Shown one piece after another: positions 13,573 through 14,481 of a stretch of DNA of 64,000 nucleotides. Each line of letters starts with the position of its first letter. Within the stretch, counting starts at the first letter, position 1. The DNA is from Escherichia coli (GTDB taxonomy: Bacteria > Pseudomonadota > Gammaproteobacteria > Enterobacterales > Enterobacteriaceae): the NCBI RefSeq assembly GCF_048403405.1, contig NZ_CP183135.1; one strand, 5' to 3'. The notes under the pieces were generated by a model. That model made no database searches and was not told the origin of the DNA. It worked only from the letters and a program-made list of their open reading frames with translations. The translations under genes and the position numbers were made by a program.

Positions 13573-14316
13573 ATGAAAAAATTGATACTCGCCGCCGCTG
13601 TGGCAGGGGCTGTTTTATTGTCGTCCGCCGCGCAAGCGCAGACAACGCCGGAAGGTTATCAACTGCAACAAGTGTTGATGATGAGCCGACACAACTTGCG
13701 CGCGCCGTTGGCCAATAATGGCAGCGTGCTGGAGCAGTCCACGCCGAATCAGTGGCCGGAGTGGGATGTGCCCGGCGGGCAGCTCACCACGAAAGGCGGT
13801 GTGCTGGAAATTTATATGGGCCACTACATGCGAGAATGGCTGGCGGAGCTGGGGATGGTCACGTCAGGCGAATGCCCGACGCCGGACACGGTATATACCT
13901 ATGCCAACAGTCTGCAACGCACCGTTGCGACGGCACAATTCTTTATCACCGGCGCTTTCCCTGGGTGCGACATTCCGGTACATCATCAGGAAAAAATGGG
14001 CACGATGGACCCAACGTTTAATCCGGTGATCACCGATGACTCTGCGGCGTTTAGCCAGAAAGCGGTGCAGGCGATGGAAAAAGAGCGCAGCCAGATGCAG
14101 CTTGACGACAGCTATCAGCTGCTGGCGCAGATGACGGACTACAAAGATTCACCGTCCTGCAAAGAAAAACAGCAGTGTTCGCTGACCGAAGCCAAAGACG
14201 CCTTTAGGGAAGGTGCGAATAAGCAGGTCATGTCTTCCCAAGCTGACTCGTTGATTAAAATTTCGCGGATCTGGGCCGATTTTTGTCCCGCAAACACATC
14301 GAATCAGCCTATTTAG
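13573..14316 (+). pseudogene. agp: glucose-1-phosphatase (histidine acid phosphatase), 5' portion only
   Basis: Signal peptide plus RHNLRAP active-site motif and close resemblance to E. coli Agp through ...[13 protein letters not shown]; 247 aa instead of ~413. Confidence 0.7.
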
Positions 14317-14481
14317 GCTATTTTTTCCACCATTTCTGGTGTTATTTCCGGTTTTTACTGAGATCTCTCCCACTGACGTATCATTTGGTCCACCCGAAAC
14401 AGGTTGGCCAGGGTGAATAACATCGCCAGTTGGTTATCGTTTTTCAGCAGCCCCTTGTAGGGGTCCGCTTGGAAAACGGAA

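Follow-up and report, generated by a model that had tools for sequence, protein, structure and literature searches.

An IS5 remnant between a truncated agp and a Tn3-family transposon repeat on an Escherichia coli IncF plasmid

On a multiresistance plasmid of Escherichia coli, a reading frame that begins as agp, the gene for glucose-1-phosphatase, stops resembling its relatives before the inverted repeat of a transposon begins, and the locus raises the question of what fills the space between the two and how it came to lie there. The first-pass annotation of the window (the whole stretch of DNA analysed here, 64,000 nucleotides long) had described an unexplained gap of about 250 bp, from 14200 to a repeat starting at 14460. 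The gap is real and comprises 252 bp (14208-14459); the start of the repeat was placed correctly, whereas the start of the gap was set about 8 bases too early, agp ending at 14207. As had also been noted, the interval contains no long ORF, none of its own exceeding 45 aa. It is, with very little room for doubt, a dead fragment of an IS5-family element, left on an E. coli IncF plasmid after one mobile element had inserted into another; we conclude that it is inert scar DNA, probably without a function of its own. Features of the region are collected in Table 1.

Table 1. Features at and around the interval between truncated agp and the transposon repeat (window positions).
Feature	Position	Strand	Basis
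Truncated agp, histidine acid phosphatase (glucose-1-phosphatase) pseudogene	13573-14207	+	Profile, structure and DNA alignments
TTAG, IS5 target site, native agp sequence	14204-14207	.	K-12 agp ACC TTT AGC aligned there
IS5-family remnant, positions 1-252 of the 1195-bp element	14208-14459	- (transposase gene strand)	252/252 to the AR_0013 copy
IS5 terminal inverted repeat GGAAGGTGCGAATAAG	14208-14223	+	Sole match in window
End of IS5 transposase gene, last 34 codons and stop	14355-14459	-	34/34 aa identity to K-12
TTGTA, one copy of the 5-bp target-site duplication (IS5 positions 248-252)	14455-14459	.	Single in intact IS5
Outer 22 bp of the 38-bp Tn3-family terminal inverted repeat	14460-14481	+	Uninterrupted repeat elsewhere
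IS4321 (IS110 family, IS1111 group), 1327 bp, inside the transposon inverted repeat	14482-15808	-	Empty-site comparison
IS4321 transposase gene	14737-15741	-	NF033542, E=7.5e-102
Inner 16 bp of the 38-bp Tn3-family inverted repeat	15809-15824	+	Empty-site comparison
Truncated Tn3-family tnpA, without its N-terminal part	15820-18228	-	NF033527
IS26, cutting tnpA	18229-19048		IS26 end GGCACTGTTGCAAA at 18229

Sequence comparison finds window 8000-32000 to be 100% identical to pCREC571-1 (NZ_CP183118.1) and to one sister plasmid, and the window as a whole is the reverse complement of bases 12935-76934 of NZ_CP183118.1; it belongs to a multiresistance plasmid of the IncF type in E. coli. PGAP annotates the identical stretch as an iron-uptake cluster, a hypothetical gene, the agp remnant ('histidine-type phosphatase, incomplete, missing C-terminus'), the IS5 remnant ('IS5/IS1182 family transposase, incomplete', the label carried in the identical plasmids), the IS4321 transposase gene ('IS110-like element IS4321 family transposase'), tnpA ('Tn3 family transposase, incomplete'), and then IS26, aac(6')-Ib-cr, blaOXA-1, truncated catB and IS26. 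An iron-uptake cluster, a truncated agp and an IS26-bounded aac(6')-Ib-cr and blaOXA-1 are shared with the scars of other IncF multiresistance plasmids of the ST131 type. A 'glucose-1-phosphatase-like' gene is among the few common at 100% to ST131 blaCTX-M-15 IncFII plasmids (PMC4807372). From the nested mobile-element scars of IncF multiresistance regions the window shows no material difference, being a further copy of a widespread arrangement.

The interval lies outside both the transposon inverted repeat and the insertion sequence nested within it, as the first-pass annotation had recognised, and belongs to a different element, IS5. In E. coli AR_0013 a full-length IS5 adjoins the same truncated agp (locus L002, 6009-7203), and all 252 bases of the remnant are identical to it; the match to a copy in MG1655, labelled by PGAP 'IS5-like element ISKpn26 family', extends to 248 of the 252. 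The terminal inverted repeat, for which a search of either strand finds one occurrence in the window against a chance expectation of 0, occupies the outermost bases of the remnant, where GGAAGGTGCGAAYAAG is exact at 14208-14223 and abuts agp. In full-length IS5 copies GGAAGGTGCGAATAAG is paired with CTTGTTCGCACCTTCC at the opposite end. Translation of 14355-14459 agrees at every position with the K-12 IS5 transposase (residues 293-326), a protein that at full length matches NF033581 ('IS5 family transposase') and of which the window fragment holds the last 34 codons only, so that no active enzyme can be encoded there. Used as a query, the interval (260 bases) hit 3811 records of E. coli, the best with 100% identity (E=2e-129), which is not a chance resemblance. 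The remnant is like K-12 IS5 in its 16-bp terminal repeat, in its nucleotide sequence (248/252), in the last 34 transposase residues and in the TTAG insertion site; it is unlike K-12 IS5 in keeping 252 of 1195 bp, one end and no intact gene. Lacking a second terminal repeat and any intact gene, the IS5 fragment cannot transpose. PGAP also places a 74-aa 'hypothetical protein' (WP_306174585.1) on the minus strand at window 14149-14373, where it starts inside the IS5 end and extends past the junction to agp; the annotation has a comparable ORF at a K-12 IS5 copy, and WP_306174585.1 is probably a spurious gene call.

Because 14208-14459 is an IS5 end abutting native TTAG, it was IS5, and not the transposon, that interrupted agp. 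Alignment with agp, proposed at the outset as the way to locate the break, puts it at 14207 and identifies the inserted sequence as IS5 positions 1-252. The earlier suspicion that the truncation is no simple transposon insertion was well founded: IS5 entered agp first, and the transposon then entered IS5.

The second of these insertions is recorded at the other border of the remnant, where the transposon repeat GGGGTCCGCTTGGAAAACGG, found once in the window, begins at 14460. The 38-bp repeat stands uninterrupted (GGGGTCCGCTTGGAAAACGGAAATTATCCCACGCTAAG) at the same junction in p4_2_1.1 (L001), and it also occurs in Providencia pPROV278-1. The break in IS5 coincides with the outermost base of this complete repeat, which points to transposition. 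Duplication of a 5-bp target is the hallmark of Tn3-family insertion, and intact IS5, reading CAGCCCCTTGTATCTGGC, contains TTGTA once. The predicted reciprocal junction, 123 bases consisting of the reverse complement of the 38-bp repeat, TTGTA and IS5 from position 253, was built and then searched for; it was found, at 100% identity over its full length, in at least 12 plasmids of E. coli. NZ_CP024860.1 holds both junctions, reading ...CCCCTTGTA/GGGGTCC... and ...GGACCCC/TTGTA/TCTGGC... with identical 38-bp repeats. Around the first junction its order is IS26, truncated tnpR, OsmC ... alkene reductase ... alpha/beta hydrolase, tnpA relic, repeat, TTGTA, IS5 253-1195 and the autotransporter fragment; around the second, which is inverted, it is IS26, truncated tnpA, repeat, the stump of IS5 positions 1-252 (with TTGTA as its last bases before the repeat), truncated agp and the iron cluster.

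These junctions also bear on a rival account of how the transposon came to adjoin the IS5 stump, namely adjacent deletion by intramolecular transposition, with no duplication or reciprocal junction ever having existed. Neither the remaining IS5 sequence nor the second IS5 terminal repeat occurs in the window, pCREC571-1 has retained neither a further IS5 piece nor any cargo gene of the transposon, and the second end of that transposon is likewise missing from the window and from the whole plasmid, so that insertion and adjacent deletion look the same from the window alone. In related IncF plasmids, however, the reciprocal junction is present at 100% identity, its 38-bp repeat and TTGTA being the same as in the window, and NZ_CP024860.1 has the reciprocal and window-type junctions together. 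Since TTGTA stands at both junctions as a 5-bp target duplication, the adjacent-deletion model is rejected, and we give it only a very slight chance of being correct.

The transposon inserted in IS5 is assigned to the Tn3 family by its GGGG-starting 38-bp repeats, present at both ends in NZ_CP024860.1 and at one end in the window, by the 5-bp TTGTA duplication, and by a tnpA that scores 1038 bits against NF033527 (profile positions 174-954 of 954) and has its stop codon inside the 38-bp repeat. It shares with Tn21-type transposons the 38-bp GGGG repeat, a tnpA ending inside that repeat, the 5-bp duplication and an IS4321 at a fixed point of the repeat. It differs in not being Tn21 itself, its nearest complete relative being without mer genes or an integron. 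That relative, about 95% identical and with the same 38-bp repeat, is carried by Providencia pPROV278-1, where its second end is obscured by a mer transposon and its cargo consists of OsmC, alkene reductase, DsbA and thioredoxin genes (redox and oxidative stress). The transposon that splits IS5 is about 14 kb long (L014 6666-16038; L009 8979-20420), and in E. coli IncF plasmids it has itself been split into two halves by IS26. Its cargo comprises no antibiotic-resistance genes; the genes are those of OsmC, TetR, carboxymuconolactone decarboxylase, thioredoxin, alkene reductase, DsbA, SDR, MalY/PatB, DMT and alpha/beta hydrolase. A search for a published name for this transposon found none.

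The repeat beside the IS5 stump has in turn been interrupted by IS4321. Its empty site is preserved in p4_2_1.1 (L001 6261-6298), where the same truncated agp and IS5 stump are followed by the 38-bp repeat unbroken. The empty site in that plasmid reads GGAA/ATTATCC; in the window these bases stand 1327 bp apart, and no target duplication is seen. IS4321 and IS5075 target the terminal repeats of Tn21-type transposons (PMC8269217), and the placement of IS4321 inside the repeat without duplication fits that preference. The NCBIfam family name for the IS4321 transposase is 'IS110 family RNA-guided transposase'; guidance by RNA would explain the fixed target of IS4321. From 20929 to 21068 of the NZ_CP069561.1 locus (L013), beside a truncated replication gene, lies a stretch of 141 bp that is 93.6% identical to window 14458-14598 and looks like another remnant of the IS4321/IS5075 type.

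Comparison among the many IncF plasmids that carry the agp/IS5 junction shows how differently IS5 has been shortened. The full 1195 bp is retained in AR_0013 (L002) and NZ_CP069561.1 (L013), followed by an autotransporter gene fragment, IS3 and a group II intron; 608 bp remain where an IS3-family element cuts IS5 (L011), 321 bp where the sequence departs from IS5 into unrelated DNA (L010), and 252 bp in the window, followed by the Tn3-family transposon repeat. The shorter forms are most simply derived from the full-length state, and the full-length copies adjoining truncated agp are pseudogenes themselves, disrupted by an internal stop and a deletion of 1 bp. For an IS5-family element a 4-bp duplication at a YTAR site is expected; the agp side has TTAG, a typical IS5 target, and in the sister copies CTAA stands opposite, beside an unrelated gene. 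The flanks of the full-length copies (L002 6005-7207; L013 11750-12952), TTAG and CTAA, are thus reverse complements and form no direct repeat, and the right flank is the autotransporter gene fragment, not agp. Control IS5 copies are flanked by TTAG/TTAG (on an IncX3 plasmid, with a 4-bp duplication) and by CAAG/CAAG. Given the TTAG/CTAA flanks and the non-agp right side, a second, IS5-associated rearrangement after the IS5 insertion, earlier than all the other events, must be assumed, and the 3' half of agp may have been lost by recombination or rearrangement between IS5 copies.

Of 5426 complete E. coli genomes, 45 contain the three-part junction of agp, IS5 stump and repeat with IS4321. In NZ_CP027130.1 (L003 20001-21700, compared with window 14200-15900) the junction of agp, IS5 stump, repeat and IS4321 is identical; the IS4321 differs from that of the window at 2 bases (15239 and 15241), and IS4321 is followed by the cargo end (a tnpA relic, 75% identical) and not by the tnpA end. 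The arrangement in NZ_CP027130.1 suggests that the transposon interior has been inverted in some lineages.

What is left of agp is codons 1-211, which encode the signal peptide as well as the N-terminal motif RHNLRAP. Gone are the C-terminal half, HD motif included, and the GHDSN region of its relatives, so that 13573-14207 has the first and lacks the second of the two motifs, an N-terminal RHGXRXP-type and a C-terminal HD, that mark a full-length Agp. Chromosomal agp of E. coli is about 79.7% identical to the window over 13573-14207, the only part to which it aligns, and the alignment ends exactly at 14207. A tblastn search of the whole 64-kb window with K-12 Agp (413 aa; E<=10) returns a single match, aa 17-211 at 13621-14205, and none in any frame for aa 212-413. 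In the PDB Agp chains 6rmr and 1nt4 the match is confined to residues 1-191 of the 391 of the mature protein, corresponding to positions 23 to about 213 of the ORF, and the NCBIfam profile NF007553 (Agp) is matched over positions 1-211 of 413 with 388.7 bits, below the 425-bit cut-off. In a three-way alignment at the break, K-12 reads ...ACC TTT AGC GCC AAG... and the window ...GCC TTT AG/G GAA GGT GCG...; closer partial relatives (90% and 84% identical) read SAKYQQEPGVSGPLKVGN... beyond the breakpoint. At the protein level the relatives continue after AKDAF with SAKYQQEPGV... and the window ORF with REGANKQ.... That ORF (13573-14316) starts as Agp, runs on into the IS5 remnant and stops at 14316; its 247 aa are a pseudogene read-through into IS5.

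The plasmid agp allele is about 80% identical to E. coli chromosomal agp in DNA and 86% in protein, and therefore traces to another enterobacterial source. A protein search for a close full-length Agp homologue gave mostly partial proteins, the nearest non-identical ones at 90-92%, with no clear source organism. Among 72,556 plasmids, a search with the Agp C-terminal half yielded only E. coli-type or Klebsiella-type agp, for the most part on records resembling chromosomes or pieces of them, and the 3' half of the plasmid allele was absent from all of them; since every sampled plasmid lacks it, this half was lost early, before the sampled diversity arose. No plasmid with an intact copy of the allele was found, and the state before insertion has therefore to be read from more distant agp genes.

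Could the interval nevertheless be kept as a functional unit, whether as a small RNA, as an IS5-end promoter or DNA-bending module, or as part of an Agp'-IS5 fusion? IS5 ends are known to activate neighbouring E. coli genes, and that property counts in favour of such a role, as do the 100% conservation of the junction across many plasmids and the intact signal peptide of the 247-aa read-through ORF. The conservation, however, is explained by recent common descent of the junction-bearing plasmids, and the Agp part of the fusion is without the C-terminal half that bears the HD motif. No Rfam family matches the interval (E<=1; a scan of 13400-15900 gave nothing relevant). Moreover, the length of IS5 at this junction is 321, 608 or 1195 bp in other lineages, and the 252-bp extent was therefore set by the landing point of the transposon and not by selection. 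Maintenance as a functional unit is thus highly improbable, and equally little credence attaches to co-option of the IS5 end as a promoter or DNA-bending module for the iron-uptake genes or IS4321, or of the ORF as a secreted truncated protein. Least tenable of all is the idea, named in the first-pass annotation as the finding that would overturn it, that agp is merely frameshifted and codes on in another frame up to the transposon repeat, which we discount entirely: tblastn recovers aa 17-211 only, the DNA alignment ends at 14207, and the interval is 100% IS5.

The sequence of events that produced the region begins with a 1195-bp IS5 of the K-12 type, which entered the TTAG of a plasmid-borne agp. 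A Tn3-family transposon then inserted between IS5 positions 252 and 253, duplicating TTGTA, and IS4321 followed precisely into the 38-bp repeat beside the IS5 stump. Finally, events mediated by IS26 truncated tnpA and eliminated from this plasmid what was left of the transposon, together with the other 943 bp of IS5. The insertions of IS5, the transposon and IS4321 are demonstrated by the junction sequences and the comparison of plasmids; in what order the IS26 events took place, and how the agp 3' half was lost, we infer. Two simple insertions, one nested in the other, and a subsequent loss of DNA account for the structure, which is no unusual rearrangement.

It is also an ordinary structure, publicly annotated already as a partial IS5 transposase, and to judge from public annotation it has probably been described already; the literature found merely lists 'agp' or 'glucose-1-phosphatase-like' as a plasmid gene. 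For annotation, the interval should read partial IS5, and the agp ORF should be given as a pseudogene running into IS5. The agp/IS5 junction, the IS5/transposon junction with TTGTA and the junction of IS4321 in the repeat can serve as lineage markers for the descent of IncF plasmids and for IS26 rearrangement. Beyond correct labelling and these markers, the importance of the region is small.

Further along the window, the two IS26 copies bound a unit of aac(6')-Ib-cr, blaOXA-1 and truncated catB (18229-22053), after which 22100-28200 holds an IS66-family element into which IS100 has inserted, followed by a TonB-dependent receptor gene with a frameshift. Outside the window NZ_CP183118.1 carries blaNDM-5, ble-MBL, mph(A), two class 1 integrons (dfrA17-aadA5 and dfrA12-aadA2), and chrA, which is adjoined by a second copy of the IS4321 transposase gene.
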